This document shows, one piece after another, positions 28,208 to 43,217 of a stretch of DNA of 64,000 nucleotides. The stretch is taken from NCBI GenBank assembly GCA_016206805.1, contig JACQQX010000016.1, positions 13,256-77,255 of the forward strand. Reading direction: 5' to 3'. A program made the translations under genes and the position numbers. The DNA comes from Candidatus Omnitrophota bacterium. Its GTDB lineage: Bacteria; Omnitrophota; Gorgyraeia; 2-02-FULL-51-18. Numbering within the stretch: position 1 is the first letter of the stretch; each line of letters starts with the position of its first letter. Under the pieces are notes generated by a model that made no database searches, had not been told where the DNA came from, and was given only the letters and a program-made list of their open reading frames with translations.

Positions 28208-29223
28208 TGGACCACATCCGGCGTGATGAGCTCATCCGCCTGAATATTTTTACGGGTCTTACGGCCAAGCACCAGATGCAGCTGATTCCCCAAGAGTCCT
28301 TTAGCCGGTCTCTTAAAAAGAATGTGTTCGGCGGTCAATACCGTTCCGGCTGAAATGTCCTGGGCCGCGACAGCGCTTCGCCGCATTCCCGTCATATTCG
28401 CGCGCTCAGCGACGGTCGGTGTTTTTTCGGCGGAGCCTAGACACTTTTCCGCGTCACGGACTAAGCGCGCCCATTTTGAAAAATCATCCGGATTTAAAGA
28501 AGTCGATTGGTCGGGGCCGGGCATATTTTTGTCCAAAGTAAAATGTTTTTCGACCACACAAGCGCCGAGAGCCACAGCGGCAATCACCGCGGTGTTGCCC
28601 GGAGTGTGATCCGAATAACCGACAGGAATTTGAAATGTTTCCGACAGGGTTTTTAAAGCGCGCAGGTGAGTGTCTTCCAGTGAGGACGGGTAATTGGTGG
28701 TGCATTGCAAAAGAATGAGGGGCGCCTTACTTTCGGCGCGGATCACTTGCACCGCCTGACCCACCTCTTCCAAAGTCGCCATTCCGGTTGAAAGATAAAT
28801 CGTTTTGCCTTTACGGGCAACATGACGAAGAAAGGGATGCTCCACCACATGGATTGAGGCCAGTTTAAAAGCCCCGGCACCCAGACTCTCCAGAAAATCG
28901 GCGTCCAGCGCGTCGTAAGGCGTGGAAAGGAATTGGATGCTTTCTTTCCGGCATAAATTGATCAGCGCGGGATAGCTGTCGCGCGAAAGCTCGAGCTTCT
29001 TGAGCATGTCCAGTTGAGATTCGGCCCGCGGCGTGGTTTTGAGCTGATACTCGGCTTTAGGCGCATTGGCCAAAGCGACTCTTTGGGCTGAAAAAGTCTG
29101 GAATTTAACACAGTCAGCCCCCGCCCTCTTGGCTTCAATCACCAAGCGCTTGGCCAGCTCCGGATCACCATTATGATTGACGCCGGCCTCGGCGATAATC
29201 AAAACAGGATCAGTCTTCTTCAT
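28204..29223 (-). CDS. neuB: N-acetylneuraminate/legionaminate/pseudaminate synthase (NeuB family, PEP-condensing) with C-terminal SAF domain
   Basis: VLIIAEAGVNHNGDPELAKRLVIEAKRAGADCVKFQTF and GYSDHTPGNTAVIAAVALGACVVEKHFTLD are NeuB motifs; the C-terminal antifreeze-like domain is present. Confidence 0.8.
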   Translation of the reverse strand: MKKTDPVLIIAEAGVNHNGDPELAKRLVIEAKRAGADCVKFQTFSAQRVALANAPKAEYQLKTTPRAESQLDMLKKLELSRDSYPALINLCRKESIQFLSTPYDALDADFLESLGAGAFKLASIHVVEHPFLRHVARKGKTIYLSTGMATLEEVGQAVQVIRAESKAPLILLQCTTNYPSSLEDTHLRALKTLSETFQIPVGYSDHTPGNTAVIAAVALGACVVEKHFTLDKNMPGPDQSTSLNPDDFSKWARLVRDAEKCLGSAEKTPTVAERANMTGMRRSAVAAQDISAGTVLTAEHILFKRPAKGLLGNQLHLVLGRKTRKNIQADELITPDVVQ

Positions 29224-29443
29224 GCGCCCAATTTCTGGCTTTATTGTAGGCTTTCCCGACCTGGTCTTCGAGCTGGGGCGACAACACCCGCAAAAGCTCC
29301 TTACCCATGATGCGGTATTGCTTCCCCACCTTCGCCGTACGAATCAACCCCTTCTTAATCATGCGCGTAACGGTACTGGCGCTAACCTTCAGCAGCACCT
29401 GGGTCTCTTCATGCGTATAAACCTCATTTTCCTTAATTTCCAT
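29210..29443 (-). CDS. Excisionase-family helix-turn-helix DNA-binding protein (77 aa)
   Basis: YTHEETQVLLKVSASTVTRMIKKGLIRTAKVGKQYRIMGKELLRVL fits the HTH_17/excisionase DNA-binding domain pattern. The gene overlaps the neuB start by 14 nt and is preceded by the only large intergenic region. Confidence 0.55.
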   Translation of the reverse strand: MEIKENEVYTHEETQVLLKVSASTVTRMIKKGLIRTAKVGKQYRIMGKELLRVLSPQLEDQVGKAYNKARNWAHEED

Positions 29444-29566: not shown

Positions 29567-30991
29567 TTAGTTAGTAGAGCTCGCTGACTTTTTTAGGTAT
29601 GGGAGAATTTCTTGGGCTACTAGTTTGTTGCCGAGAGTGTTCATGTGGCCGTCTACTTCGAAGTATGGGAGGTCCGAGAGGTCTTTTCCCTGATCCGGCA
29701 GTCCATTCACATAGTTTAGGAATGTGGATCTTAGGTCCAGGAAGTCGATGTCGTTTTGCTGACACAGGCTCTTGATGGCTTCGGCAACCTGGTTCTCGTA
29801 ATGGCTGGGTGGAGCGGGTTGGCCCAGCACTTTTTGGTGATAGACGAACGCTTTAGATGGAAAGAAAATGATGGCCATGGCCCTGCCCCGTTCGGAAGCG
29901 GTTTGTTTGGCTCTGAGAATGGCTTCCTGGGTGAGGCGAAATTGCAATGCTTCGGCATCAAAGGGAATTTTGGCGCCCGTTAAAACAACTCCGCGATAAG
30001 GAAGAAAACGGGACTGGGCCTGCTGGCGGCGTTTGATCAAACGGTCAAATAAATCCGAAACCTGCTCTTTCAGAGCCTGCTTGGAAAAATGAATGGTTGA
30101 GTTGATGACTTTAAAGAATTTATAGCGGGCTCTTTCCTCATGCATGTAGTCATTAATGATACCAATGCCACCCGTAAATACTTTTCCTTCAAGTGCCTTG
30201 GTTTTATTCACATAGTTGAGCTCGCGCGTTTCAAATCCAGGCGTATACCCAAAAAAAACAATATCCGTTTTGAATCGCCCTCCAAACCGCTCCAAACTTC
30301 CCTTGATCTGAATAGGCGCGTATCCCTGCACCCCCAAATTGTAAACCGGAAAACCCCTCCGCGTTAAAAGCGTTGTCCACATCAATTCAACGGGAAGCCC
30401 CATTGCCTCAACAAAAGAATCGCCGGCGGCAATAGCGACCACCCTCTCTTGCCTAGCCAAATCAGGAATATTCTTGAAACCCAGCTCATCCGTCTGCCAC
30501 AAGTTGACAAAGTCCTCTCCCCTGGCGCCATGGCTTCGTATCGTCGTATTGGGCCGGAACTTTACCCAAGGACTGTCTTCTAAATATTCAATCATCTGAG
30601 CTTTCTTATGATGGGAATATAAAAGTGAGGGGTTGGTATTAATAATGGCCTGTGGCAGCGTCTGAGGAAACGTCGAGAAAAAAACTTCCAGAAGAAGCAG
30701 AATCCCAACCATAAAAAAGTGGGATGTATTCCATAAAAGCATGGCGGATTGGAATCGCTCCGATTTTTTCAAGCTCCACAGGCTGCCGATAACTAGCGCC
30801 GTAAAATAAGCGGCTACCCCAACCGTTTCAAAATCCAATAGTTCAATATTTCCCCGTAAAGCTATCCACCGGAGCGTAAAAAAAAGCGCGCCAAAACACG
30901 CGTTTATCCCCAACAAAACCGGAATCAGCATCCTATACAGCATACAAAGGTCCTTTTGATTGCTGAAGCCGGATTCCCATGGCGTCAGCAT
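29567..30991 (-). CDS. Membrane-anchored SGNH/GDSL-like protein (AlgX/AlgJ/PatB-like O-acyltransferase accessory)
   Basis: Several N-terminal hydrophobic helices, then an extracytoplasmic domain with a GDS motif (VVAIAAGDSFVEAMG). The start may be M17, which reduces the 59-nt overlap with the upstream gene. Confidence 0.5.
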   Translation of the reverse strand: MLTPWESGFSNQKDLCMLYRMLIPVLLGINACFGALFFTLRWIALRGNIELLDFETVGVAAYFTALVIGSLWSLKKSERFQSAMLLWNTSHFFMVGILLLLEVFFSTFPQTLPQAIINTNPSLLYSHHKKAQMIEYLEDSPWVKFRPNTTIRSHGARGEDFVNLWQTDELGFKNIPDLARQERVVAIAAGDSFVEAMGLPVELMWTTLLTRRGFPVYNLGVQGYAPIQIKGSLERFGGRFKTDIVFFGYTPGFETRELNYVNKTKALEGKVFTGGIGIINDYMHEERARYKFFKVINSTIHFSKQALKEQVSDLFDRLIKRRQQAQSRFLPYRGVVLTGAKIPFDAEALQFRLTQEAILRAKQTASERGRAMAIIFFPSKAFVYHQKVLGQPAPPSHYENQVAEAIKSLCQQNDIDFLDLRSTFLNYVNGLPDQGKDLSDLPYFEVDGHMNTLGNKLVAQEILPYLKKSASSTN

Positions 30992-32081
30992 CCATAACCC
31001 TTTCCAAAACCGGACTTTCCTGGGCGATTCGCGCTAAAAGACGTGCATAAGCCTTTTCGGAAGCATGAAAATCATTAAACGCCTCGTAGTCCGTGGCACC
31101 GGTCGACTGAAGATCCGAAAAATCATAAAACTCGTAACCTTGCGCTTGGAACGCGGCCGAAAGCGCGATGGGCAGACCATGCAGATAATCCCGAGATCGA
31201 GAAATCGCATCAAGCTTTTCCATCACCACATGTCTCATGGGTGTTGTAAAACCGATGACGTGAATATTCTTTTCCCGGCAAAGTTTCAAAAAAGCTTCTA
31301 ACTCCATCAACCCATCCTGTTTAAAAGTTTCAGCCTCCACCACATAAGCATAATCAATTTTTTCCTTATCTTCATAAGGCTTTCCCGATTCAAAGTCTTT
31401 TAAATGCTCGGCCGTGATCCGATTTACTCCTTGGCCATAATCGTAACTGCCATCCTTCCGAAATCCGCTATTCTCAATAACAGCTTTCAAGCCAATCTTT
31501 TCGGCGCCGTTCTCAAAAAGAGTTTTCAAGGTATACTTTCCAGAAAAATAGTCGGCATAAACCTTGGTCCAATTTCCAAAAAGCGTGGTCACTGGTTCAA
31601 AACGCGATGATGTCCCATCCCCCGCCAGATCACGAGCAAGAGGATTTTCCCAGGGCCAGCGTGGCATATAAAAATAAGCGTCCAACCCCAGAAGCACCAT
31701 CTCCGGCTCCTGGCCTTGCGGGATGCGTCTCAAAAAATCTCCGGCATCCGGCAGCCTGAAATTGCCGGCGCTGGCATTAAAAAACTGAGGCTCAGTGAAA
31801 AATTCCTTCCGAATCGGCATCGTGTGCGAATTCCCCAAAACCAAGATCTTGGGCCGGACCTGTAAAGCCGCGAGCTGTTTAAAATGCCCGCCGGTGTTCC
31901 GGTAAGCCAATCCCACCAAGACATCTTCTGAGGAAGATTGGTATTCCGATACAATCCGTTCCATCGGCCGGATTTCATGGGTCCGGTATAGAACCACTGC
32001 CGGGAATAAAAATAAAACCGCCAGTGGCAGCAAAAACAAAGGCAAGCGGACCAAAAATAAAGACAGAAGATGCCGGTTCAT
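30933..32081 (-). CDS. DltD/AlgJ-like membrane-anchored protein (putative acyl-transfer accessory)
   Basis: N-terminal TM anchor (LFLVRLPLFLLPLAVLFLFPAVVLY), then a soluble domain with ILVLGNSHT, a candidate nucleophile-Ser block. Size and topology match DltD/AlgJ. Confidence 0.4.
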   Translation of the reverse strand: MNRHLLSLFLVRLPLFLLPLAVLFLFPAVVLYRTHEIRPMERIVSEYQSSSEDVLVGLAYRNTGGHFKQLAALQVRPKILVLGNSHTMPIRKEFFTEPQFFNASAGNFRLPDAGDFLRRIPQGQEPEMVLLGLDAYFYMPRWPWENPLARDLAGDGTSSRFEPVTTLFGNWTKVYADYFSGKYTLKTLFENGAEKIGLKAVIENSGFRKDGSYDYGQGVNRITAEHLKDFESGKPYEDKEKIDYAYVVEAETFKQDGLMELEAFLKLCREKNIHVIGFTTPMRHVVMEKLDAISRSRDYLHGLPIALSAAFQAQGYEFYDFSDLQSTGATDYEAFNDFHASEKAYARLLARIAQESPVLERVMDADAMGIRLQQSKGPLYAV

Positions 32082-32087
32082 AGGCTC

Positions 32088-33464
32088 CTAGAACTTGAAA
32101 TAAATAAAATCTTTGGGCAACAATTGTCCAAAGCAGACAATAGAAAGCAGCGCCGCGTAATACACGCTATACCGCACCACTCTGGGCCTCCATAATCCCC
32201 GCCAGGCCGGTGAGGCTTGGGTCCAATGAACTAGCTCCATCAAGACGATGAATAAAATGACCATCATCAAATGGGCCTGGCTGATGCCCAAACCCAATTG
32301 CCAAAACGACCAATCCCCCTGAAACATGCGGCGGAATATTTCCGCGGCCTGTTCCGCGGAACGGGCCCGGATAAAAACAAAAGAGAAGACAACCAGATGA
32401 AAAGTGATCATGGGCGTGACAAAGCTTCTCACGCGTCCCAGCCGGACGGATTTTTTTGCGATTTTATTTCTCCATGGCAGCGTGATCGCTGAAACGCTCA
32501 TATAAATACTTTGAATCACGCCAAAAACGATAAAGTTAGTCGTCGCGCCATGCCAAATCCCGATGGCCATCATGCTGGCGCATAAGGACACTACCAGCCC
32601 CATCCGCCCCCAATAACGGGTGGCCATTTGCAAAGGCTTAAAAACATAATCCAAGATCCAGGAGGTGAGCGTCATATGCCAGCGGCGCCAGAACTCCTGG
32701 ATATTGGGCGCGTAAAAAGGCCGGTTAAAATTGGGGGGCGACTGGATGCCGAATACACGCGCGACACCGATGGCGATATCTGTTAAGCCAGAAAAATCAG
32801 CGAAAAGCTGAAGCGTGAAACAATAAACCGCTATCCAGACCGCCGCCGCGTTAAAATCAGCTGGGTGCCCAAAAACCTGATTGACGGGAATCGCCAAGGT
32901 ATCCGCGATCACAAGCTTTTTGAAAAAACCAAAGAGCATCAGCTTTAATCCGCTGGTAACCGTCTCCTCCGGAAGAGACGGCTGGCTTTCGACTTTCTGG
33001 ATTTCCGCAAAGAAATCGTCCGAACGCTGAATGGGCCCGCAAAGGATTTGCGGAAAAAAAGAAAAATACAGCGCCAACTTCCAAAAATCCCTCTGGGCCT
33101 TCATCTTCTCCCAGTAAACATCCAAAACATAACTGATCATTTTGAACGTGTAATAAGAAATGCCTAGCGGCATGAGAACGCGCGACCATAAACCTTCCCC
33201 ATGCGGCGCGTACTTGAAAAAAATAAGATTCAGCAGAATAACCGATAGGATGAACATCAACGCTTTTTTTCCGCCTTTACCGGCGGCGGCATAGACCAAA
33301 CCCGTCAAAACCACGAGCCAAATTAAAAACCAAACACTCCAAAACGCGTAGAAAAGACAGGATAAGAATAAAAGCCAGCGCCCTCTGGCGGCCCCAGGTA
33401 TTACAAAATAAGTCAGGGCGGCCGCGAGAAAAAAAAGCAGGAATTCAATCGAATTGAAAAGCAC
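32088..33464 (-). CDS. MBOAT-family membrane-bound O-acyltransferase (DltB/AlgI/PatA-like)
   Basis: Multi-pass membrane protein with the MBOAT signature EFWRRWHMTLTSWILDYVF containing the invariant His. Confidence 0.8.
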   Translation of the reverse strand: MLFNSIEFLLFFLAAALTYFVIPGAARGRWLLFLSCLFYAFWSVWFLIWLVVLTGLVYAAAGKGGKKALMFILSVILLNLIFFKYAPHGEGLWSRVLMPLGISYYTFKMISYVLDVYWEKMKAQRDFWKLALYFSFFPQILCGPIQRSDDFFAEIQKVESQPSLPEETVTSGLKLMLFGFFKKLVIADTLAIPVNQVFGHPADFNAAAVWIAVYCFTLQLFADFSGLTDIAIGVARVFGIQSPPNFNRPFYAPNIQEFWRRWHMTLTSWILDYVFKPLQMATRYWGRMGLVVSLCASMMAIGIWHGATTNFIVFGVIQSIYMSVSAITLPWRNKIAKKSVRLGRVRSFVTPMITFHLVVFSFVFIRARSAEQAAEIFRRMFQGDWSFWQLGLGISQAHLMMVILFIVLMELVHWTQASPAWRGLWRPRVVRYSVYYAALLSIVCFGQLLPKDFIYFKF

Positions 33465-33707
33465 TTAAGGCAGGCTCTTTTGGATAAGCTGAATAAAATC
33501 GCCGACATTTTTCAGCCGGACAATGTCTTTTGTGGAAAAAGATACGCCGAACTTCTTTTCCGAGGCGACAATCAGATTGATATGAGTCAACGAATCCCAG
33601 TTATCGACATCTCTGGCTGTCATCTGATCATGCACCTGTATCGAGTCATCATCAAACACATCCCTAAAAATCAAGTTGAGTTGGGTTCGGATCTGGTCAG
33701 CGTTCAT
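33465..33707 (-). CDS. Acyl/D-alanyl carrier protein-like (DltC-type, 80 aa)
   Basis: Four-helix carrier-protein size with a phosphopantetheine attachment Ser in DNWDSLTHINLIVASE, closely resembling the DltC pattern LDSxGxVELL. Confidence 0.7.
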   Translation of the reverse strand: MNADQIRTQLNLIFRDVFDDDSIQVHDQMTARDVDNWDSLTHINLIVASEKKFGVSFSTKDIVRLKNVGDFIQLIQKSLP

Positions 33708-35463
33708 TTTTCATATACGTCGCTTTAGAAACATAGGAAGTGACTTCTTTTTCCCAAACCACAGCGCCGTCTGGCGCCGGAGCGCTGGGCGTAAACGCGT
33801 ATCGGCCATAAAAATGCTCAACCATTCTATTTTTGGCGGTTGGGTGATACTGTCCGACAACTTTCGTGCAGCCATGCTCACTCGCATACCGGAATACCGC
33901 ATTCATCATCTGATCCTCGACGCCGCGATACAACACTCGGCAGCTCATAATCCATTCTTCAACAAAAGCCACCCGGCCTTCCCAGCGCATCACAACAACC
34001 GATATCAGGCCGCTGTCACTGAACTTGTCCTTCAAGGTGGCATACAACGGCAAATAGGCGTGATCACTGGCCATCTGTTCGCATTGGGCTTCGGAAAAAC
34101 GCCGCGTCATGAGATTGAACTGGTTGCTTCTTTGGATAAGCTGGGCGATCCGCGGCAGGTAAAACGAGTCAAAGCGGGCTATCTTCATCGTCATGTCCAG
34201 CGACTTCAAATAATCGTCGATGCTGGCATGCTGTTCGCGCAAAGACTGGCGCTGGGATTCCGCCTGATAAAACTCCGTCCGGCCGGCGTCTTCCTTCGCG
34301 ACTGCATTGGATTCAAAAAGATTCATTTCGGACAAGAGCCGCAACAAGCTCACCGGGTCCGCGGGAAATTCCGGAACGACCACCTCGGGCAAATGCTGCC
34401 TCACAAGATTTCTCTCGAAAGGGTCGTCATCGATGAATACCATCGAATCAAAACCGATGTTCAACGTTTGTTGGATGGTTTTGATATTTTCCACTTTGTT
34501 ATTCCAATTGGCGACAAAAACCGCAAAGTCTTTTTCATTCAAAACCATGTCCGGATGTTTTTGAAAAGGCAAAAGCGCGTTGTGCGCGTCATTTTTGCTG
34601 CAAGCGGCCAGCACAATCCCCCGCCGCTTAAGCGCCCGGAAGTACTGCTGGATTTTCGTGTAAATCTCCCCTTCATCCAAGTCGCCAATCTTAATCCCTT
34701 CCAGGCCATCTTCGCCGATAACACCACCCCACAGCGTATTGTCCAGGTCCAGCACCACGCATTTGATGCAACGGCCTCGAAAAGACAGCGAGATATCTAC
34801 CAGGTTTTGAGCGACCCGCGGCAAATGCTCCAGCGCGCATAAGGACTTGGACAAAAGCCAAAGCTTTTCATCATGCCACTCCTTGAGGCCCGCATAGGAG
34901 GCCAAATACTGGACGTCATGGATGAAAACATTTTTATGAGCCAGGGCTTTTTCCATGATCAAATGATTGATGGTCAAAACGGAGCGGTAAAACGTGGCTT
35001 TCACTTTCTGGTCGAAATTTCCGTAAAGTCTTTCATGGGGCAGCGAATAATTTCCCTGGATAATAATGGCATCCGGCAAATTTTTTGTGACCAAGTCCCA
35101 GACATGAAATATTTTTTCGGAGGTGATTGAAGCGAAGGAGTCCGTGGGATCTTCCTGTTCGTGGAACTCCTGCCGCAGCTTCATCACCGAATGCATGATA
35201 ATGACTTGTTCCGGCTTGAAGGCGTAAAGGCCGGACTGCGCATCCAAAACCTCATGCGTAATGGAGTCATACTCGGCTTCGTAAAGCTCGAGATTCACTC
35301 CTTTAGAGTGAAATAGGGTTTTCAGCAAAATCGCCAGCTGCTGCGTGGCAAAATCGGCGAGAATCGCCGCGCGCACAACAGGAAAGCCTTCCGAAGAAGA
35401 AAGCTTGCGGCTTTTTTTCATCAAATCAAAATAGTCTAATTCCGCGGAATGACCGTTCTGCAT
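33697..35463 (-). CDS. FkbH-like domain protein (HAD-superfamily subfamily IIIC; putative 1,3-bisphosphoglycerate-dependent glyceryl-carrier-protein loading enzyme)
   Basis: Central HAD motif I CVVLDLDNTLWGG (DxDxT), further HAD motifs (ACSKND, FIDDDPFE), an N-terminal FkbH-like region, and a C-terminal domain with Cys residues. 588 aa. Architecture is like FkbH/OzmB. Confidence 0.6.
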   Translation of the reverse strand: MQNGHSAELDYFDLMKKSRKLSSSEGFPVVRAAILADFATQQLAILLKTLFHSKGVNLELYEAEYDSITHEVLDAQSGLYAFKPEQVIIMHSVMKLRQEFHEQEDPTDSFASITSEKIFHVWDLVTKNLPDAIIIQGNYSLPHERLYGNFDQKVKATFYRSVLTINHLIMEKALAHKNVFIHDVQYLASYAGLKEWHDEKLWLLSKSLCALEHLPRVAQNLVDISLSFRGRCIKCVVLDLDNTLWGGVIGEDGLEGIKIGDLDEGEIYTKIQQYFRALKRRGIVLAACSKNDAHNALLPFQKHPDMVLNEKDFAVFVANWNNKVENIKTIQQTLNIGFDSMVFIDDDPFERNLVRQHLPEVVVPEFPADPVSLLRLLSEMNLFESNAVAKEDAGRTEFYQAESQRQSLREQHASIDDYLKSLDMTMKIARFDSFYLPRIAQLIQRSNQFNLMTRRFSEAQCEQMASDHAYLPLYATLKDKFSDSGLISVVVMRWEGRVAFVEEWIMSCRVLYRGVEDQMMNAVFRYASEHGCTKVVGQYHPTAKNRMVEHFYGRYAFTPSAPAPDGAVVWEKEVTSYVSKATYMKNER

Positions 35464-35466
35464 GGA

Positions 35467-36174
35467 TTAGCCGCCCGTAACGGGCAAATTGACATCGTTC
35501 ATGTAGGAGGATTCCGGTGACAGCAGAAATTGAATGGCGGCGGCGACCTCATCCGGCTCGGCGATGCGGCCCATCGGTAAACCATATTCCACAGTTTCAA
35601 TGAATCGGGCCGGCAGGTCCGCGTTAAAATCCGTCCGCGTCATCCCGGGTGACACGGCGTTCACGCGAATACCATATTTGGAAAACTCCGCGGCCTGAGA
35701 CCGGGCCAAACCCCAATGCAAATATTTTAAAGCCACATAAGCGCCCTGCTTTTCCGGCGCCGCGGCCAATACCACAGAAGACAAAAGATGGACGATGGAG
35801 CCACGGGCTTTTCTTTTTTGAATGCCGGAAGCGAACGCGCGGGAGACCTCAAAAACGCCACGGATCCCCGTTGTGACATATTCCATGAAAACGGCTGTTT
35901 CCATTTTGAGCAGCGCTTCACGGGCATAAAGCTGCGCGGCGCAATACACAAAACCATCAAAACCACCGTCTTCGGCCACCCTCGCCAATTTCTGTATGGA
36001 TTCAGCCGAATGAAAATCATAAAGCACGCGCTCAGCGCCTGTCGAGGAGGCCAGCTGCCCCGCCTCTTTTTCATGACGGCAATAAGTGAATGTGACGGAA
36101 TGGTTGCCCGCTCTCAAACGCCGCACAAGGCTGGCGCCAATTCCCTGACTGCCCCCGACAACGAGAACTTTCAC
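35467..36174 (-). CDS. SDR-family oxidoreductase (FabG-like, possibly acting on the carrier-protein-bound acyl group)
   Basis: MKVLVVGGSQGIGASL (GxxxGxG), a catalytic Y-x3-K (YVALKYLHWGLARSQAAE), and VNAVSPG. Confidence 0.7.
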   Translation of the reverse strand: MKVLVVGGSQGIGASLVRRLRAGNHSVTFTYCRHEKEAGQLASSTGAERVLYDFHSAESIQKLARVAEDGGFDGFVYCAAQLYAREALLKMETAVFMEYVTTGIRGVFEVSRAFASGIQKRKARGSIVHLLSSVVLAAAPEKQGAYVALKYLHWGLARSQAAEFSKYGIRVNAVSPGMTRTDFNADLPARFIETVEYGLPMGRIAEPDEVAAAIQFLLSPESSYMNDVNLPVTGG

Positions 36175-36584
36175 GACATCATCCCTATCTGCGTTTTTGC
36201 TGACGCGCTTAAATGCGACCGCGTTTTATTGAATAAATCCATTTTAACCACAACCACCTTCACCGACGGCACTATTTGCGCCACCCGGGCTTTGAGAATA
36301 ATTTCATCGTTAAGATAATTTGGGTTTTTGAACTCGATATGAACGGATTGCAGCAACGAACGCCCTGCCGGAAAAACCATGCCGACAAAATGCGATATGA
36401 AGCCATTCAAGATACCCCCATGCATGACACGGCCTTCAAAACCGGCTTTCCGGGCAAACTGATCATCGATATGGATAGGATTTTGATCTTTGAAAAACTC
36501 GACATACTGACGGTAAACGTCTTCCGTTATCCGGTAAACGCTTTCATGGCTGTCATCGACACGGATGTCGTCAAAAAGCTTCAA
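36171..36584 (-). CDS. MaoC-like (R)-specific hydratase/dehydratase, hot-dog fold
   Basis: FFKDQNPIHIDDQFARKAGFEGRVMHGGILNGFISHFVG matches the MaoC dehydratase active-site region (D-x4-H...G-x-HG). Confidence 0.7.
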   Translation of the reverse strand: MKLFDDIRVDDSHESVYRITEDVYRQYVEFFKDQNPIHIDDQFARKAGFEGRVMHGGILNGFISHFVGMVFPAGRSLLQSVHIEFKNPNYLNDEIILKARVAQIVPSVKVVVVKMDLFNKTRSHLSASAKTQIGMMS

Positions 36585-36608: not shown

Positions 36609-38396
36609 TTATATCGCATAGCGATAAATGCTGTACACATACTTTGCTTTACCCTCACTATGCGCATACTCAAAAACCTTTTCATACGGATGCGTCTGGA
36701 CATATTTCCGTATTTCCGGATCAGAGCCTTCTTCCACCCATATAAACGTAAAATGTTCGCGATCCAGATACTCTGCCCAAGCGATGCCCTGTCTCTCCAG
36801 CCTATTTTTCAAAGCCGCCGTATAAAATACGGCTTTATCCGGCCGCTGGCGATAAAACCGGCGGGGCTGGGCGGAAAGAAAAATACTCTCTTTTGGATCG
36901 GCGTGGCGGTTCAGATAATCAAACCCGCGAAAAGAGCGCTCATTTTTCAAAAGATAATCGCGGGCGTTTTCCGCTCCCAGCGCTACCGGCCAGGCATTCC
37001 ACGTTTGACACACAAATATCGCGCCATGAAGAACTAAAGCGCTGTAGAAAAGAAGCTGCGTTGTTTTCCATAGCGCCGCCCCATAACTCCTAGCTTTCGC
37101 AAAAGCAAAGCCGGCTCCGACAGCCGCGTAAGGCGCCAGCATAAAAAGAAAACGCGCGGCCTGCTGGGTGAATACAAGAAGATATATCGAAAACGTATAA
37201 AAAAGGAATGCTCTTTGTGTTTTTGTATTGCGCACACTAAGCGCCATAAGCGGGAGCAGCATCAAATAAAGAGGGCCTATTAATTCTCCCAGAGGAAACG
37301 CGTCCGGATGCAAGGTAAAATTCCAGGGCAGCTTAATAAAAGCCGGGAAATCCTGCCCCATGCCGGTCAGCCGGTCAACGGAGTCCTTAAAACCATTCCC
37401 TCCGAATAGGCCTGATAAAAAAGGATAAATAGGATTCCCCGCCAGGATCCAACTGCGCGCATACCAAATCCCTCCGGTCAACGCGCAAGCCGCCATAAAA
37501 TAAAAAAGAAGTGACGCCTTTTTTAAATTCCAGCTTTGGATAATCCATAAAACAACCAGCGGTATCAGCGCCCCAAAGGCGAGATACTTCGTCCCTAAAG
37601 CACCCCCGCACAGCAGGCCGGACAAAACCGCGTTATTTTTTTTATGAGAGAATGGGACGAGAAACGCGTAAATCGCCGCGAAAGTAAAAAAAACGATGCC
37701 CAGCTCCACATAAGCTTTTGAAGACTGAAAAAAAGCCAGCGGCGTGAATAAAAATACGAGCATCGCCCATTCCGCTTCTTTTTTCCCGCCCTGAAAACGC
37801 AGCACAAACGCGTAAATGGCGTAAGCGGTTAAAACATAAAATGCCCAATGAAAAAGATGGGCCAGTATCGTGCCCTGAAGCAGCAGCCCCAGCGTAAAAA
37901 ACATTTCCATTTGATACGGCCACAAGGATTCACGGGAATCTGGGATCGCAAAAATCTTGCCGCTTTCGATAAACTCGCGAGGATGCGCCAGATGATACAC
38001 CAGCGCGTCATGCCCAGTCGGAGGGGCCAGCGCCTGAAGCCAGGAGAGAAAAAGAGCTAATGCAATCCACATCCACGTCGTTTTGGAGAATTCGGGCCAG
38101 CCCTCCGCTTTTTCTTTTTGGCCGGTCAGTGAAAAAATAAACAATAAACCGGCCAAGCCAATGGCGACTTCTCGTCGCAGCATTCCCAAAAGGCCGATGG
38201 CTAAAACACCCAACGCCAAAAGCGCCATTCCCATAGCCGTAAAAAAGATGCGCTTTTCATGGACGGAGAACTCCGCGGCGGAGCCTCCGGATAAACCCCA
38301 AATCCTGGCGCCCACACGATAAGCCGACCACACCAGCAGGGCTAAAAGTGAGCTGGCCCAAAGGGCGGGCCCTATTCCCTGCGTCACAAAAGACAT
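36609..38396 (-). CDS. GT-C-fold integral membrane glycosyltransferase (ArnT/PMT family 39/83-like)
   Basis: More than 10 hydrophobic helices with an acidic/His-containing first extracytoplasmic loop (PPTGHDALVYHLAHPREF). Start set at MSFVTQG, forming a 1-nt overlap with the upstream gene; the ORF could extend to 38507. Confidence 0.5.
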   Translation of the reverse strand: MSFVTQGIGPALWASSLLALLVWSAYRVGARIWGLSGGSAAEFSVHEKRIFFTAMGMALLALGVLAIGLLGMLRREVAIGLAGLLFIFSLTGQKEKAEGWPEFSKTTWMWIALALFLSWLQALAPPTGHDALVYHLAHPREFIESGKIFAIPDSRESLWPYQMEMFFTLGLLLQGTILAHLFHWAFYVLTAYAIYAFVLRFQGGKKEAEWAMLVFLFTPLAFFQSSKAYVELGIVFFTFAAIYAFLVPFSHKKNNAVLSGLLCGGALGTKYLAFGALIPLVVLWIIQSWNLKKASLLFYFMAACALTGGIWYARSWILAGNPIYPFLSGLFGGNGFKDSVDRLTGMGQDFPAFIKLPWNFTLHPDAFPLGELIGPLYLMLLPLMALSVRNTKTQRAFLFYTFSIYLLVFTQQAARFLFMLAPYAAVGAGFAFAKARSYGAALWKTTQLLFYSALVLHGAIFVCQTWNAWPVALGAENARDYLLKNERSFRGFDYLNRHADPKESIFLSAQPRRFYRQRPDKAVFYTAALKNRLERQGIAWAEYLDREHFTFIWVEEGSDPEIRKYVQTHPYEKVFEYAHSEGKAKYVYSIYRYAI

Positions 38397-40855
38397 TATC
38401 CGCCCCACGCTTTCGGAACAATAACCCATAAAAGATAAAGGGAGAAAACAATTCCCATCCAAATCGCGATCAGCAGCGGAGCTTTCCGTTTTTTCCAATA
38501 GAGCCACAAAAACAAGCTTCCCAACAAGACCCAGGCCGCGTTCGAAATGAGTTCAAGAAAATCATGAAACCGGTAGTCATAAAAAAACTCAACTTGATGG
38601 CGGCCTGGCGTTTCAAGCCGTATTCCGCACAACGCGTGATTCACCGGCATCAGCCGGGTCTCCACTCCATCCACCGCGGCCTTCCATCGGGGATAAAACA
38701 CTCCTGAAAAAACAACAACCGTCGGCCGGTCAATATCCAGCGCTGCTCTTGCATGATCCTGGCTATCTTTTTCAATAACAACAGGGATATCCGCGCCGGA
38801 GGAGCCGATGGACGAATCGGCTTCTCCTTCCAAGACAGCTTCGCGGCGTGGATTAAAAGCGGGGCTTTTTAAATAGGCCAGCCTCTCCTCTTTGGCATCC
38901 AAGGATTTCCATTGGGCCACGGCATAAATCCTGGGCAACGCATCGGCGTTCCGGTAAATCCAATGCCGGCCCAATTGTTCCAAAAATACAAGGCCTTCCA
39001 AAACCAATTCTTTGTCCGCCACGACAACCGTAACGCCCAGCATATCCAAAAGCGGTTTTTGATTCCTCCACACGTGAACCGATGTCGGCCGGCGGCCTGT
39101 AGAGCTATCCACAAAACCTAAATCTCCAAAAAGCTCCTCATATCTTTTGATCGTTAGCGGCGAATAAATACCCGCATGCCGTATGCCGTAAAGCATATTG
39201 GAAGAAGCCTGCAGAGGCTCTCCGCCCGGATGATCGGATAACTCGGCGACCACTCCGCCCCACTCTTTTTGGAGGCCTTGCACGCGCTGGATAAGCGCGG
39301 TTTCTGTGAAAGGTATTTTTCCGGCATTCCCAATAAACCCAACGCCCGCCGGACCGCCCCACACCGCGGCGCCAAAACCATACAAATCCACGATCAAAAG
39401 CGCAAAAGCCCAATGCGCCAAACGCCGTCTTTTAGCCGGGGTTGCATCTGCCCGAAGCGCCGCGTAAACAATAAAAACGGAAAGGCTTGCGAAAACAGCG
39501 GTCAAAATATTCTGAATGGCCAAAGGGTTCAAATGCTCCTGCAAAACCGAGAATAAAAAGCGCATTTTATCCTGGTAATATTCAGGCGCTTTGGCCAAAG
39601 CGCCTTTTTGGAGGGCTATTTTTTCAGCGAAGGCATGGCCTTTTTGAAGCCAAAAATCCTGCGAGGCCCTGAAAAGAAAGGACGCGGCCAGAGGGAACAA
39701 GGCGATCAGGCTTCCCATAAGGGTCAGCGCCGGCAACGCCTTTTTCCAAACTGTTTCTTTTAAAAAAATCTTATCAAAACCAAAACCGGCCGCGAACGAT
39801 AACGCCATCGCCGAGAAAAAAAGAAACTTGGAGGGATTGCGAAAAGCGGTTAGCGAAAACTTTTCGACGACAAAAGCATACAAAGGATTATATTTTCCCA
39901 AAGCCAGCAAGGCGAAGATGAGTGCCAGCCATAAAAGTTTTTTTTCTTTCGCGGTTTTTGGTAAAACCAGCGATGCCGCCAAACAAAAAAGAGGAAAAAT
40001 TCCAATATAAAAACTGACGCTTAAAAAACGGCTGATACTGGGAAAAATAATCGAGGCTAAGGCCGGAGGCATCACCGATCCCCATAAAGCGAACTCCGGC
40101 GTTTGGCCCTGCCGGGTGGAGGCCGACGCCAGCTCTGCCGTAGCTCCGATTTGCGGCAAAGCCAGTAAAACAGAAAAAGCGAAACAAATTCCAAAAAAAG
40201 CAAAAAGATTCGGGCGTTTTTCACGGACCAGCGCCATGTCCAAAGCCAAATACCCAACCGCATAAACAGCCAACTGAGGAAAACCGGCTGTTTCCATTTG
40301 TGAAAATAAAAAGGCAAGCCACGCTCCCCAAAAACTTTTTTCCAGCCATCCCTCTCTTTCACGGACATGTTCTAAAATCCATAGACACCAGGGAAGCCAT
40401 GTCAAAACGCGTAAAGTGCCCGTCGTATAAAAACAACCGCCGTACGTGGTGGAAAATGAAAAAAGAATGGCCGAGAAAACCGCGGCTTTACCGCTTTGTC
40501 CGATTTTACCGGCGTAAAGATAGGCCCCTATCCCTCCGGCAAGCACATGAAGCACGATGCCCCAAGTATAGGCCGCCTCAAACGGCAGCAACCGGTACAA
40601 CCATTGATGCAGCCAATAATAAGCGGCCACTTGGCCCTCCGCCACCAGCGGAAAACCCAAAGCGACTAGATTCGTCCAATAAGGAAGGCTTCCCCCCTCC
40701 AACGCAGAGGCGTAATGAAAACTCCAGGGATAAAACTGCACCCAATAATCTCCGCCGATGAAAGTCTGCTTCAGAAATACCAGCGGCCATAAAAACAGCA
40801 GAAAAATCAGGCCATAATAAAAAATAAAATGGGAATGGCGTTTAGCGAAGCTCAT
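38396..40855 (-). CDS. YfhO-family membrane protein (large GT-C-like glycosyltransferase, 819 aa)
   Basis: N-terminal pattern FIFYYGLIFLLFLWPLVFLKQTFIGGDYWVQFYPWSFHYASALEGGSLPYW and overall topology (~12 TM plus a large C-terminal extracytoplasmic domain) are typical of YfhO. Confidence 0.55.
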   Translation of the reverse strand: MSFAKRHSHFIFYYGLIFLLFLWPLVFLKQTFIGGDYWVQFYPWSFHYASALEGGSLPYWTNLVALGFPLVAEGQVAAYYWLHQWLYRLLPFEAAYTWGIVLHVLAGGIGAYLYAGKIGQSGKAAVFSAILFSFSTTYGGCFYTTGTLRVLTWLPWCLWILEHVREREGWLEKSFWGAWLAFLFSQMETAGFPQLAVYAVGYLALDMALVREKRPNLFAFFGICFAFSVLLALPQIGATAELASASTRQGQTPEFALWGSVMPPALASIIFPSISRFLSVSFYIGIFPLFCLAASLVLPKTAKEKKLLWLALIFALLALGKYNPLYAFVVEKFSLTAFRNPSKFLFFSAMALSFAAGFGFDKIFLKETVWKKALPALTLMGSLIALFPLAASFLFRASQDFWLQKGHAFAEKIALQKGALAKAPEYYQDKMRFLFSVLQEHLNPLAIQNILTAVFASLSVFIVYAALRADATPAKRRRLAHWAFALLIVDLYGFGAAVWGGPAGVGFIGNAGKIPFTETALIQRVQGLQKEWGGVVAELSDHPGGEPLQASSNMLYGIRHAGIYSPLTIKRYEELFGDLGFVDSSTGRRPTSVHVWRNQKPLLDMLGVTVVVADKELVLEGLVFLEQLGRHWIYRNADALPRIYAVAQWKSLDAKEERLAYLKSPAFNPRREAVLEGEADSSIGSSGADIPVVIEKDSQDHARAALDIDRPTVVVFSGVFYPRWKAAVDGVETRLMPVNHALCGIRLETPGRHQVEFFYDYRFHDFLELISNAAWVLLGSLFLWLYWKKRKAPLLIAIWMGIVFSLYLLWVIVPKAWGG

Positions 40856-42591
40856 GCGGGATCGAAAGCGTATAGCTCGAGATAGGGGCCGGGACGGTTC
40901 CGGGAAAAAAGCTCTCCGGCATCAAAAGGCAGCGCCACATGGGCCCACCGGTCTTCAGTCATGATCTTGCGGCTGTCCTTGTAGGGCGAAAATACTTTGA
41001 GAAGCCGCATGCTCGGCTTTAACTGGCGGTCAAAAATCTCTGTTTCTCCCGGATAACGGTAACGGACAAAATAAGCCACGTTCTTTTCTCTGAACTCATT
41101 CACGTCCGCGCCAATCAGCGGCGGCCATAATAGAAAGGGGGTTTCCTCCAAACCTTCGGCGTTCAAATAAAAAATACGATGGGTCTTTTTGTCTTTCTGC
41201 GCTTCCAGCATCCATTGGATTTTTTTGGCCTTCAGCTGTCCATGCGGGTCTTCCGCGTTGATTTTTCCTGATTTTTTTAAGATTTCTTCCGGCACTTGAA
41301 CCAGTGGCGGAGAAAAGAAAGGGTGATCCACTACGATGGAGGCGCCCGCCGGCACTTCTTTTTGAATCCATTCATTCACTAAAACCCGTGTATCCGAAAC
41401 CGGCAGAAGACGCGACAACTGCACATCTTTGACCAGCGATGGAAGTGAAATAGCCAATACCACGGCCAGCCAGAATGGGCCGCGGACCCTGGACACCATC
41501 CAAGCCGCGCCCAAACATAGAAATGGAATAATGGGCATCGCGTAACGCTCGTAATGCTGGCTGAATAAAGCGATCATCACGTAATAAACAAAAGGAAAGG
41601 CCGTCAGCCATCGTTTTTCTGGAAATTTAATCCAGAAGGTCACAAGCCCCGCCACACCCACCGCCAAAAGCGGCCAGCCTACTCCCCCACCCAAAGAATA
41701 CCGCAGATGATGGAAAAAGGGCATGGCCGACTCCGACACCGCCTGCTGCCGTATCTCGGAGATGAAAAAAGGAAAGTCCAAAAAGCTGAAAGGGTTGAGT
41801 GTCGCGTAAGTAACCCCCGTCAAAACTGCGGCGCTCAAAAGCCGTTTTCTAAAAAATAAAAAAGGCAGGGCCACGGGAGCGGCGATGTATTTGAGCGCGA
41901 CGGCGATTCCCGCCGCTACGGCCGCCATATTCCAATAAAACACCTTTCCGCTTTTTTGATATTCCGCCAATAAATCAAAAGTCACCAGCATCGCCAGAAT
42001 CATGGGGATGTCCGCATACAGATAATGCGAGTCCCGAACGGGCATATAAGCCAGCGCCATGAAAAAAGCCGCCGCTACTGCCGTTTTTTCATCCCACAGT
42101 TTCCGCGCCAAACGGTAAAGAATGATAACCGAAGCCGCGCCCGCCAAAGCTCCAAAAATCAAGCGGCCAGCCAGATAAAAAACGGTTGGGTCCTTAAAAA
42201 ATAAAATCGCGAAATCCTGGACACTCCAGCGGTAAATCAGCGCCGCGGCCAGATAGAGGATGCCGTAAACGCCGGCCAAAAGATAAGACAAGAGCGGCGG
42301 GATTTTAAAAAAATGGGGATTCAGGTTCCCTGAAGCAAAAGCCAACGCATGATTGACGATGATAGGCTCATCCTGATGGAAAAGATGCGGCAATCCAAAA
42401 TCAATACCGATACAGCGTATCGCCAGCGCCCCCAAAAAAACGAGCCCAATCGCTTTTCCCTTCACCGGGCCACGGCCTTTACGATAAAAAGCAGCGCGAA
42501 ACGGTCCGGCCAAATACGCGCCATGCGATAACGGATGCCAAACGGCAAGAGACTCAACGTCAGGTTGACGCATTGAATGGCTTTGCGCCAA
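40852..42591 (-). CDS. GT-C-fold membrane glycosyltransferase (PMT_2/ArnT-like, polyprenyl-phosphate-sugar dependent)
   Basis: About 11 TM helices with conserved acidic residues in loop 1 (LFHQDEPIIVNHALAF) and a C-terminal soluble domain. A possible GTG start at 42465 would avoid the 130-nt overlap with the methyltransferase gene. Confidence 0.55.
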   Translation of the reverse strand: MAQSHSMRQPDVESLAVWHPLSHGAYLAGPFRAAFYRKGRGPVKGKAIGLVFLGALAIRCIGIDFGLPHLFHQDEPIIVNHALAFASGNLNPHFFKIPPLLSYLLAGVYGILYLAAALIYRWSVQDFAILFFKDPTVFYLAGRLIFGALAGAASVIILYRLARKLWDEKTAVAAAFFMALAYMPVRDSHYLYADIPMILAMLVTFDLLAEYQKSGKVFYWNMAAVAAGIAVALKYIAAPVALPFLFFRKRLLSAAVLTGVTYATLNPFSFLDFPFFISEIRQQAVSESAMPFFHHLRYSLGGGVGWPLLAVGVAGLVTFWIKFPEKRWLTAFPFVYYVMIALFSQHYERYAMPIIPFLCLGAAWMVSRVRGPFWLAVVLAISLPSLVKDVQLSRLLPVSDTRVLVNEWIQKEVPAGASIVVDHPFFSPPLVQVPEEILKKSGKINAEDPHGQLKAKKIQWMLEAQKDKKTHRIFYLNAEGLEETPFLLWPPLIGADVNEFREKNVAYFVRYRYPGETEIFDRQLKPSMRLLKVFSPYKDSRKIMTEDRWAHVALPFDAGELFSRNRPGPYLELYAFDPA

Positions 42592-43217
42592 TAAGAAGGG
42601 TTGCGGCGGATATCACTCACAATCGAGTCCCGCATCGAATAAGCCGGGACATAATCGGTCCATTCAATCGCAAAGCCGGCTTTCTTAAGATCATCAATGA
42701 GTTCATTCAGACGATAACGTCTCACATGATGCACGCCATCGGCGCGCATATTGGGCTGACCCACATATAAAACGCCGCCAGCCTTAAGAACATCATGAAC
42801 TCCACAAAGTGTTTTATTGGGATAATGCAAATGCTCCAGCACTTCAAAACAAAATGCGACGTCATAACTGGCCGCTTCCATCGGAAAACGCTTGCCAATA
42901 TCCCCAAAGATCGCATGAAACCCGGCCTGGCGGGCCGCCTCAAGCCCCGACTGACTGATATCCAGGATGTGCGCGCCTTTAAACCCTAAATACTGCATCA
43001 GTTGGCCATTTCCTCCGGCCACATCTAAAATCTTGTCGCCACTGCGAACCTGGAGGCGCGAACGAACCCGGTCATAAAGCTTTTGATAATAAGCCCGTCG
43101 CGTGCGCTGGAGAGCCTCATCTTTCCAATAATCTTTGTAATACTCCTGGGCATGCACGGAGGGGGATTCCATTAAACGGCCTTCTTTCGCAGCGGCAGCC
43201 ACCGGATATTGTCCCAA
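42462..43217 (-). CDS. Class I SAM-dependent methyltransferase
   Basis: ILDVAGGNGQLMQYL motif I, AHILDIS motif II, and VLYVGQPN post-II. Alternative start MESPS (43172). Confidence 0.7.
   Translation of the reverse strand: MGQYPVAAAAKEGRLMESPSVHAQEYYKDYWKDEALQRTRRAYYQKLYDRVRSRLQVRSGDKILDVAGGNGQLMQYLGFKGAHILDISQSGLEAARQAGFHAIFGDIGKRFPMEAASYDVAFCFEVLEHLHYPNKTLCGVHDVLKAGGVLYVGQPNMRADGVHHVRRYRLNELIDDLKKAGFAIEWTDYVPAYSMRDSIVSDIRRNPSYWRKAIQCVNLTLSLLPFGIRYRMARIWPDRFALLFIVKAVAR

Follow-up and report, generated by a model that had tools for sequence, protein, structure and literature searches.

A Putative Carrier-Protein-Dependent MBOAT-SGNH Pathway With an FkbH-Like Loader for Surface-Glycan Acylation in an Omnitrophota Bacterium

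Introduction

Systems in which a membrane-bound O-acyltransferase (MBOAT) acts together with an SGNH-type protein set the surface charge, the phage and immune recognition and the material properties of bacterial envelope polymers. In the D-alanylation (Dlt) route, the acyl group passes from the carrier protein DltC to the tyrosine in the FxYxxF motif of a separate microprotein, DltX, while in all other MBOAT-SGNH pathways the MBOAT itself bears this motif on two additional, fused helices; the non-Dlt pathways are described as using acetyl-CoA without a carrier protein, and the acyl-tyrosine shuttle and the serine relay of the SGNH protein are described in the same work (PMC12148441). Current mechanistic reviews set Dlt (carrier protein and DltX) against the rest (acyl-CoA and fused shuttle), and the design analyzed here would be a third, widespread one. 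It is encoded in a 64-kb stretch of a metagenome-assembled Candidatus Omnitrophota genome (contig JACQQX010000016.1, positions 13,256 to 77,255; referred to as the window), where seven consecutive minus-strand genes (29567-36584) combine an FkbH-like enzyme, a stand-alone acyl carrier protein (ACP), an MBOAT and two SGNH-type proteins with a MaoC-type dehydratase and a short-chain dehydrogenase/reductase (SDR).

FkbH enzymes are known from polyketide biosynthesis, where FkbH and a stand-alone ACP yield glyceryl-ACP, with 1,3-bisphosphoglycerate (1,3-BPG) as the starting material (PMC7489565), and where dehydratase-ketoreductase (DH-KR) proteins turn glyceryl-S-ACP into lactyl-S-ACP to provide the FR901464 and lankacidin starter units (PMC4765723). 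The original prediction for this locus, made from the sequence without database searches, held that the FkbH homolog, rather than an adenylating enzyme of the DltA type, loads the carrier protein that feeds the MBOAT and its SGNH partners, and this core idea is now supported by gene linkage across genomes, by intact catalytic residues and by the interchange of loaders in one gene position. The seven genes are read here as one operon for the extracytoplasmic O-acylation of a surface glycan, with a carrier-protein thioester and not acyl-CoA as the donor, at a probability of roughly 0.7.

Gene Content of the Seven-Gene Block

All seven open reading frames (ORFs) of the original prediction were recovered with their coordinates, and the junctions between them measure -4, +3, -11, 0, +6, and -59 nt. 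In the direction of transcription, the block opens with a MaoC-type hot-dog (R)-hydratase/dehydratase (137 aa, 36171..36584; Pfam MaoC_dehydratas, 40.4 bits at a gathering threshold, GA, of 27) and a FabG-like SDR/ketoreductase (235 aa, 35467..36174; adh_short_C2, 130.8 bits). These are followed by the three-domain FkbH-like loader (588 aa, 33697..35463; FkbH_N, 114 bits, TIGR01686, and HAD-IIIC, 70 bits), the stand-alone ACP (80 aa, 33465..33707; WDSL motif and a match to PDB entry 2lml), and the MBOAT (458 aa, 32088..33464; Pfam MBOAT, PF03062, 71 bits). The last two genes encode a DltD-fold SGNH protein (382 aa, 30933..32081; assigned by fold and motifs) and a second SGNH/AlgX-like protein (474 aa, 29567..30991; Pfam ALGX, 30.2 bits at a GA of 26.5). 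Between the ACP and FkbH genes there is an overlap of 11 nt, and between the ACP gene and the start codon of the MBOAT the distance is 0 nt. A sigma-70-like site lies just 5' of the first gene (36637-36608) and a terminator-like hairpin just 3' of the last (29553-29537), each a consensus match only.

Linkage Across Genomes and the Loader Position

Nearly 8,000 clusters of FkbH-like proteins were found, and a scan with an FkbH alignment, taking one genome per species, gave at least 593 relatives, from which 80 loci were kept. These span Acidobacteriota, Alpha-, Beta-, and Gammaproteobacteria, Myxococcota, Planctomycetota, Verrucomicrobiota, Omnitrophota, Nitrospirae, Bacteroidota, Ignavibacteria, Clostridia, and Leptospiraceae. 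Linkage was counted in the 46 loci whose FkbH gene is flanked by 4 kb or more on each side: an ACP gene stands beside it in 44 and an MBOAT gene within 6 kb in 40. In 34 of 57 same-strand pairs, no more than 60 nt separate the ACP stop codon from the MBOAT start, and an SGNH-type gene (GDSL_2, DUF1574, ALGX, Lipase_GDSL, DltD, DHHW, or DUF459) usually follows the MBOAT. As a control, 80 generic MBOAT loci from metagenomes were used (29-38% identity among the matches listed), of which 74 have the fused motif and 26 have enough flank; an FkbH gene lies near only two of these 26. The linkage of FkbH, ACP, and MBOAT seen in the single locus is conserved across phyla.

The four-gene core is also present in a tractable host. 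On pSymB of Sinorhizobium meliloti 1021 (NC_003078.1, 631,205-636,239; equivalent to locus L081), genes for an MBOAT, a 409-aa protein, an ACP, and an FkbH-like enzyme stand beside capsule and ABC-transporter genes, and these four genes are conserved in 40 Sinorhizobium pSymB records, that of strain 1021 included. The 409-aa protein is annotated as a 'TonB-dependent receptor' and has no Pfam hit; it is probably a mis-annotated partner protein.

The position of the loader can be filled by a different enzyme. The same ACP family is encoded directly upstream of the MBOAT in six of the 26 control loci, and where FkbH is missing from such ACP-positive loci, the ACP gene is preceded by a gene with an AMP-binding signature, typically of ~505 aa. 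Three of these pre-ACP genes score 182-246 bits with Pfam AMP-binding, and the ACP family upstream of the MBOATs in the adenylase-type loci reaches 57-81 bits. Conversely, an ORF with the AMP-binding signature occurs in only three of the 80 FkbH loci. The enzyme in the loader slot can therefore be exchanged, an adenylase standing there in some loci and FkbH in others, and it is the adenylase in exactly the FkbH slot of sister loci that gives the strongest support to the replacement of DltA by FkbH.

Four metagenome loci (L084, L095, L113, and L128) encode an AMP-binding enzyme of ~505-545 aa, a WDSL-type ACP, an MBOAT ending in FIY(F/L/M)QF, and a partner of ~310-350 aa, with the contig of L084 stopping at the MBOAT. 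They look like Dlt-like systems in which a fused tyrosine shuttle replaces DltX, and as such would fall outside the dichotomy between Dlt and acyl-CoA-using pathways. In the window, 47 ORFs were scanned with no AMP-binding Pfam hit, and none of the ORFs of 150 aa or more contains a PS00455 motif, hence a DltA encoded elsewhere in the 64 kb was rejected, in line with the original prediction that no adenylation enzyme is encoded nearby.

The FkbH-Like Loader

Judged by profile searches and alignment, the 588-aa loader is a bona fide FkbH-family enzyme; in NCBI, a protein of 100% identity to it bears the name 'HAD-IIIC family phosphatase'. The TIGR01686 FkbH-domain model scores 305.7 bits against a cut-off of 146.65 and is covered from position 3 to 319 of 323. 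The structure model separates into an SGNH-like domain (~aa 28-225), a HAD-IIIC phosphatase domain (~aa 233-360), and a C-terminal GNAT-fold domain (~aa 420-588). The HAD domain carries D239-L-D241-N-T243, S289, K323, and D345 (D239 codon 34747-34749), and the GNAT-fold domain the motif S507-C508-R-V (C508 codon 33940-33942). Across 22 homologs of ~50% identity, D239-L-D241-(N)-T243, S289-K-N, K323, D345-D346, and M-S-C508-R-V are invariant.

To this set were added short FkbH proteins of the polyketide synthase (PKS) type from annotated plasmids, aligned over the HAD and C-terminal portion: one from a Bacillus thuringiensis hybrid nonribosomal peptide synthetase (NRPS)/PKS cluster and two from Streptomyces cassettes of the type 3-hydroxyacyl-CoA dehydrogenase/ACP/acyl-CoA dehydrogenase/FkbH (hydroxy- or methoxymalonyl-ACP). 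D239, D241, T243, S289, K323, D345, and S507-C508-R509-V510 stayed invariant, and the FkbH-specific residues and domains that the original prediction had expected are thus intact and match those of the PKS-type enzymes. C508 is the only cysteine invariant across the glycan-type and PKS-type sequences, which makes it the candidate acyl-S-enzyme site, whereas C461 is invariant in the glycan-type set and not conserved in PKS-type FkbH. From work on OzmB, FkbH catalysis is said to proceed via an acyl-cysteine. The sole solved relative is the uncharacterized BF1531 of Bacteroides fragilis (3slr), which spans the first two domains of the loader.

The Carrier Protein and the MBOAT

The ACP contains the motif W37-D38-S39-L40-x-H42, in which S39 (codon 33591-33593) is predicted to carry the phosphopantetheine arm. 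W-D-S39-L-x-H is near-invariant in 74 orthologs from the fetched loci, with WDSL conserved at 91-99%. The best NCBIfam ACP model gives 31 bits, while the DltC model gives 17 bits against a cut-off of 68; of the 'DltC-like carrier' of the original prediction, a carrier protein with a conserved serine is thus present, which by sequence does not appear specifically DltC-like. The best PDB match is 2lml (65.7 bits, titled 'putative acyl carrier protein'), with a score far above those for the ACPs of fatty acid synthases; 2lml is probably a lipopolysaccharide-associated ACP of Geobacter.

The MBOAT has the expected WRRWH motif (W259-R-R-W-H263) and the universally conserved catalytic histidine, H305 (codon 32550-32552), which aligns with the catalytic His336 of DltB and is invariant among the aligned MBOATs. 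DltB (6bug) is also its closest solved relative (111 bits), in an alignment limited to residues 7-343 of 458. Beyond this lies a C-terminal extension of ~115 aa that is absent from DltB and ends, immediately before the stop codon, in the acyl-shuttle hexapeptide F453-I-Y455-F-K-F458 (codons 32091-32108). The terminal F-[ILV]-Y-x-x-F occurs in 63 of 64 MBOATs of FkbH loci. The DltB equivalog model TIGR04091 scores 202 bits against a cut-off of 375, and no DltX-like small ORF ending in the FxYxxF motif was found between 29200 and 36700. The MBOAT architecture is accordingly not DltB-like, and the label 'Dlt-like' holds only in part for the system. By sequence the MBOAT is a hybrid, in which a fused tyrosine shuttle is combined with an adjoining, translationally coupled carrier protein and which would need no DltX.

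MBOATs linked to a carrier protein also group by sequence, with a nearest-neighbor label agreement of 0.84 as compared to a permutation mean of 0.53 and maximum of 0.72, and of 0.94 as compared to 0.55 in the background MBOAT sample alone. The positions that discriminate carrier-linked MBOATs are A222, R283, G289, and F314.

The Extracytoplasmic Partners

Two SGNH-type proteins had been predicted downstream of the MBOAT, and both adjoining partners indeed carry a serine of catalytic type, S85 in the DltD-fold protein and S192, within a G-D-S motif, in the ALGX-matching one. The 382-aa protein is membrane-anchored by a single N-terminal transmembrane segment (aa 4-35) and harbors Block I as G83-N-S85 (S85 codon 31827-31829), followed by D210-G-S212, D320, and a C-terminal N336-D337-F-H339 (H339 codon 31065-31067). 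Profile searches gave it no family match; its fold is that of DltD. Word-indexed homolog searches recovered just 7-8 relatives, whereas an exhaustive HMMER search revealed a large family, comprising 4,676 representatives, which has the DltD fold and for which Pfam offers no model.

The 474-aa protein has about three N-terminal transmembrane segments, the motif G190-D-S192 (S192 codon 30416-30418), and D447-x-H449. Besides ALGX, it matches Lipase_GDSL_2 at 23.4 bits, under GA, and its sole PDB match is the GDSL protein 7ddy (E 0.058). The 59-nt overlap of its ORF with the upstream gene makes an internal methionine a possible true start. By analogy with AlgJ and AlgX, the protein is proposed to act as the terminal transferase to the glycan or as a second specificity module.

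The Acyl Group and the Proposed Relay

The conserved unit is FkbH-ACP-MBOAT-SGNH, for which family chemistry predicts a glyceroyl ester. MaoC and SDR, present in 14 and 10 of the 46 loci, respectively, are an optional accessory of about a fifth to a third of the loci. Both enzymes of the window appear intact: the Hydratase-2 motif of MaoC, D33-x-N35-P36-x-H38 (codons 36471-36488), is at least 85% conserved in 22 orthologs from FkbH loci, and the cofactor motif G7-G8-x-x-G11-x-G13 and the catalytic Y146-x-x-x-K150 of the SDR are conserved in 20 orthologs, with a TIGR01830 score of 121.9 bits that stays under the equivalog cut-off of that model.

The steps that follow, the acyl identity and the acceptor are all drawn from the established chemistry of the families. 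The FkbH-like enzyme would capture a phosphorylated C3 acyl phosphate, most likely 1,3-BPG, the HAD domain (D239/D241) would dephosphorylate it, and the glyceryl unit would be held on C508 of the GNAT-fold domain before its transfer to the phosphopantetheine arm at Ser39 of the ACP. MaoC would eliminate the 3-hydroxyl group to give enol-pyruvoyl- or pyruvoyl-S-ACP, which the FabG-like SDR would reduce to lactyl-S-ACP. The acyl-ACP would then dock at the cytoplasmic face of the MBOAT, where His305 would drive transfer through the membrane tunnel onto Tyr455, and from acyl-Tyr455 the group would pass to Ser85 of the membrane-anchored DltD-fold protein and on to a hydroxyl of the glycan built by the surrounding locus, either directly or via the second SGNH/AlgX-like protein.

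By analogy with the polyketide enzymes, it is probable that the C3 unit derives from 1,3-BPG. O-Lactylation is tentatively favored for the window, at somewhat less than even odds that lactyl is the final group, because glyceryl-S-ACP is a 3-hydroxyacyl thioester and because DH-KR proteins provide a precedent for its conversion. The tailoring by SDR and dehydratase that the original prediction had suggested has a published counterpart for lactyl (PMC4765723), and the pair is an optional part of the system. A product of the 3-hydroxybutyryl type was rejected, as no ketosynthase is encoded in the seven-gene block. Likewise, the GAPDH paralog once proposed to supply 1,3-BPG is a real GAPDH-family ORF (17840-18898) but no conserved partner: a homolog is found in one of the 80 FkbH loci, and a dedicated supplier was thus rejected, while a local role may remain.

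The Acceptor and the Surrounding Window

The acceptor is most likely a surface polysaccharide, judging by the gene neighborhoods. The window encodes nonulosonic-acid pathway proteins (NeuB, a PglD-like acetyltransferase, a CBS-DegT aminotransferase, a GFO/IDH/MocA oxidoreductase, a cytidylyltransferase, and HisF/H-like proteins), and NeuB, the PglD-like acetyltransferase, the aminotransferase, and the cytidylyltransferase are encoded directly downstream of the seven-gene block. Other glycan genes of the window comprise those for five GT-C/PMT-like proteins, glycosyltransferases of families GT2 and GT9, sugar-nucleotide dehydratases, and a Wzx-like flippase. In other genomes, 135 sampled neighbors of the module are mostly methyltransferases, GT1/GT2/GT4 glycosyltransferases, epimerases, dehydratases, Bac_transf, and Wzy_C.

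The GT-C/PMT-like membrane glycosyltransferases are encoded at 36609-44632 and 54336-57469 (minus strand), and among the genes of the first stretch, one (38396-40855, minus strand) encodes an 819-aa polytopic protein with no Pfam hit. A homolog of it (333 bits) lies directly upstream of a MaoC-SDR-FkbH-ACP-MBOAT-DltD-like block in a Planctomycetia genome (L010), where PMT_2 follows the module. This arrangement suggests that GT-C enzymes build up the acceptor glycan on the outer face.

Several further features of the window were noted. The 343-nt gap between the module and NeuB contains a 77-aa ORF of HTH_17 type (excisionase/MerR-like; 29210-29443, minus strand) with a promoter-like site, whose product may be a local regulator. 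About 11 kb from the block, a sub-cluster at 14815-18898 (minus strand) encodes a HAD_2 phosphatase, a D-2-hydroxyacid dehydrogenase, a CTP_transf_3 cytidylyltransferase, an FAA-hydrolase-family protein, and the GAPDH paralog; the five genes may serve to make a nucleotide-activated substituent (a hydroxy acid or a sugar acid) by a route of their own, and an Omnitrophota locus of the set (L036) has the same dehydrogenase and cytidylyltransferase. A DmpG-like 4-hydroxy-2-oxovalerate aldolase, an acylating acetaldehyde dehydrogenase, and a thiamine-pyrophosphate-dependent, acetolactate-synthase-like enzyme (46646-50338, minus strand), encoded within the glycan locus, may provide the nonulosonic acid with an unusual acyl or keto-acid substituent. 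Also within the glycan locus, a pyruvate-kinase barrel domain and an adenosine-phosphosulfate kinase domain are fused in one 549-aa protein (9931-11580, minus strand), an unusual architecture that may point to sulfation or phospho-transfer chemistry. Toward the window ends lie a B12-binding radical SAM enzyme (3160-4668, minus strand) and a GDSL_2/DUF459-like SGNH protein (62335-63588, minus strand); a second MBOAT beside the latter, at the right edge, was rejected, as the candidate is a partial ORF that lacks the terminal motif and is not MBOAT-like.

Alternative Explanations

A number of observations weigh against the reading of the block as a carrier-dependent O-acylation operon. The fused FxYxxF motif is so far documented only for acyl-CoA-using MBOATs (PMC12148441), and shared ancestry may partly underlie the clustering of MBOATs with and without a carrier. 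The ACP stays under all curated cut-offs (PP-binding, 20.0 bits versus 20.8). In the 382-aa protein, an asparagine replaces the aspartate of the D-x-x-H motif of its relatives. Among the 160 fetched loci, none showed an ortholog of the 474-aa protein, whose SGNH assignment is the weakest of the seven and depends on a single Pfam hit barely over threshold. Six of the 46 FkbH loci have no MBOAT, and on a plasmid of Niveispirillum cyanobacteriorum (L082, 8848-13328), an FkbH-like gene and an ACP gene stand with a WcbI-family putative acetyltransferase and an SDR, again with no MBOAT, so that the donor pair of FkbH and ACP can evidently couple to a cytoplasmic type of acyltransferase as well. Finally, glycan-type and PKS-type FkbH share just 26-29% identity over the HAD and GNAT region, and the glycan-type enzyme has an extra N-terminal SGNH-fold domain.

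Some of these points would fit a block that serves two unrelated functions. FkbH, ACP, MaoC, and SDR would then produce an acyl-ACP with which a nucleotide sugar, e.g., the nonulosonic acid of legionaminic or pseudaminic type whose genes follow downstream, is N- or O-acylated in the cytoplasm, and the MBOAT and the two SGNH proteins would independently carry out ordinary acetyl-CoA-dependent O-acetylation of the PatA/PatB or AlgI/J/X type. The tie of the fused motif to acyl-CoA donors, the FkbH loci lacking an MBOAT, the Niveispirillum locus, the nonulosonic-acid genes directly downstream of the block, and the location of the fkbH-domain gene cj1302 in the flagellar glycosylation locus of Campylobacter jejuni all point that way. 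Separate functions are nevertheless hard to reconcile with the strong association between FkbH and MBOAT genes and its near absence from generic MBOAT loci, with the tight spacing of ACP and MBOAT genes here and in other loci, with the same ACP family between AMP-binding enzymes and MBOATs elsewhere, or with the distinct sequences of carrier-linked MBOATs; moreover, no candidate for a cytoplasmic acyl-ACP-dependent acyltransferase is encoded within the seven-gene block. Such a division of labor is considered quite improbable. The original prediction had named four findings that would speak against its own reading of the block, and none was obtained: the loader retains its FkbH residues, the small protein has the conserved serine of a carrier, no DltA was found in the window, and the MBOAT gene is linked to that of the carrier rather than standing apart from it.

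Two other possibilities keep the architecture of loader, ACP, MBOAT, and SGNH protein and change its substrates. Because of the low identity to PKS-type FkbH and the additional N-terminal domain, which those enzymes lack, the substrate of the loader could differ from 1,3-BPG, and the acyl group could come from another acyl phosphate or phosphoester, be acted on in turn by MaoC and SDR, and be neither glyceroyl nor lactyl; that the only solved FkbH-like relative is functionally uncharacterized and that the loader slot is demonstrably interchangeable leave room for this. All examined invariant HAD and GNAT residues are, however, also invariant in PKS-type FkbH, the TIGR01686 match runs the length of the model and scores twice the cut-off, a hot-dog dehydratase and a ketoreductase are the pair known for glyceryl-S-ACP, and no ketosynthase is present that could build, e.g., a 3-hydroxybutyryl unit, which together make another acyl source improbable. 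Regarding the acceptor, a lipid- or protein-linked target (a glycolipid anchor, the glycan of an S-layer or pilin glycoprotein, or a peptidoglycan-like polymer) is unlikely, despite the unusual wealth of GT-C/PMT-like transferases in the window, which elsewhere glycosylate proteins or lipid A, the synteny of the 819-aa membrane protein with the module in the Planctomycetia genome, and the range of polymers modified by known MBOAT-SGNH systems (teichoic acids, peptidoglycan, alginate, and cellulose; PMC12148441). The sampled neighbors, with their GT1/GT2/GT4 transferases, sugar-nucleotide enzymes, Bac_transf initiating transferases, and Wzy_C polymerases, are of classical polysaccharide make-up, and the window has its Wzx-like flippase; with such an acceptor, the target alone would change and the mechanism would stay the same.

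Novelty and Implications

In the open-access literature and bioRxiv, no description was found that links FkbH/HAD-IIIC with MBOAT, AlgI, DltB, polysaccharide acylation, or cj1302. The parts and the logic of the relay are known, while the joining of an FkbH loader and a dedicated ACP to an MBOAT with a fused shuttle and to a DltD-fold partner appears to be new, as does the breadth of this combination. It is evenly poised whether the locus stands for a modular class of envelope-glycan acylation that has so far gone unrecognized and extends over more than ten phyla: such a class would be built on a WDSL-type ACP and a tyrosine-shuttle MBOAT, with an exchangeable loader that is either FkbH, tapping 1,3-BPG for glyceroyl or lactyl groups, or an adenylase for another acid.

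If the proposal is correct, non-acetyl hydroxy-acid esters would be a common and overlooked decoration of surface polysaccharides, including those of S. meliloti, gut Clostridia, and Bacteroidota, and central glycolysis would be tied directly to surface decoration. A function would thereby be given to the very large family whose sole annotation is 'HAD-IIIC family phosphatase', including the solved BF1531, to the WDSL-type ACPs, and to the DltD-fold family of 4,676 representatives. With the four-gene core present on pSymB of S. meliloti 1021, the hypothesis is testable in a tractable host.

Comparison With Known Systems

Like Dlt D-alanylation, the system would depend on a carrier protein and has a membrane-anchored SGNH protein of the DltD type. 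In contrast to Dlt, it has no DltA, whose place is taken by an FkbH-family HAD/GNAT enzyme, and no DltX microprotein; its ACP and its MBOAT fall well short of the DltC and DltB models (17 bits and 202 versus 375 bits), the latter with ~115 additional C-terminal residues ending in FIYFKF. Furthermore, the predicted acyl group is a hydroxy acid rather than an amino acid, and the host is not a Firmicute.

With PatA/PatB (O-acetylation of peptidoglycan) and AlgI/AlgJ/AlgF/AlgX (O-acetylation of alginate), the system shares the C-terminal FxYxxF fused to the MBOAT on extra helices, one or two SGNH-like partners in the periplasm, and the location in a polymer-biosynthesis locus, and the set of one MBOAT and two SGNH-like proteins resembles AlgI with AlgJ and AlgX. 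Whereas those pathways are described as using acetyl-CoA without a carrier protein (PMC12148441), the window encodes a dedicated ACP and loader, which are co-inherited with the MBOAT across phyla, and this gene linkage speaks against an acyl-CoA donor here.

The loader has the same D-x-D-x-T, S, K, D, and S-C-R-V residues as the polyketide loaders FkbH, OzmB, Mad7, and Mad14 (tetronates and methoxymalonyl-ACP) and, like them, an adjoining stand-alone ACP. It differs from them in ~240 extra N-terminal residues with an SGNH fold (FkbH_N, as in BF1531) and in its context, as it has no PKS, NRPS, FkbI/K/G, or FabH-like partner and the ACP would feed not an assembly line but a membrane acyltransferase encoded in a glycan locus. 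As with the DH-KR proteins of FR901464 and lankacidin, a dehydratase and a ketoreductase are encoded together with an FkbH-type loader and an ACP (PMC4765723), but they are two small proteins, a MaoC hot-dog enzyme and an SDR, and not a bifunctional PKS-type DH-KR, hence they are perhaps analogous rather than homologous, and lactyl would here be a substituent of a glycan and not a polyketide starter. Overall, a third type of MBOAT-SGNH pathway is the description that fits the system best; it would combine Dlt-like use of a carrier protein with the fused shuttle of PatA and AlgI and with either an FkbH enzyme or an adenylase as the loader.

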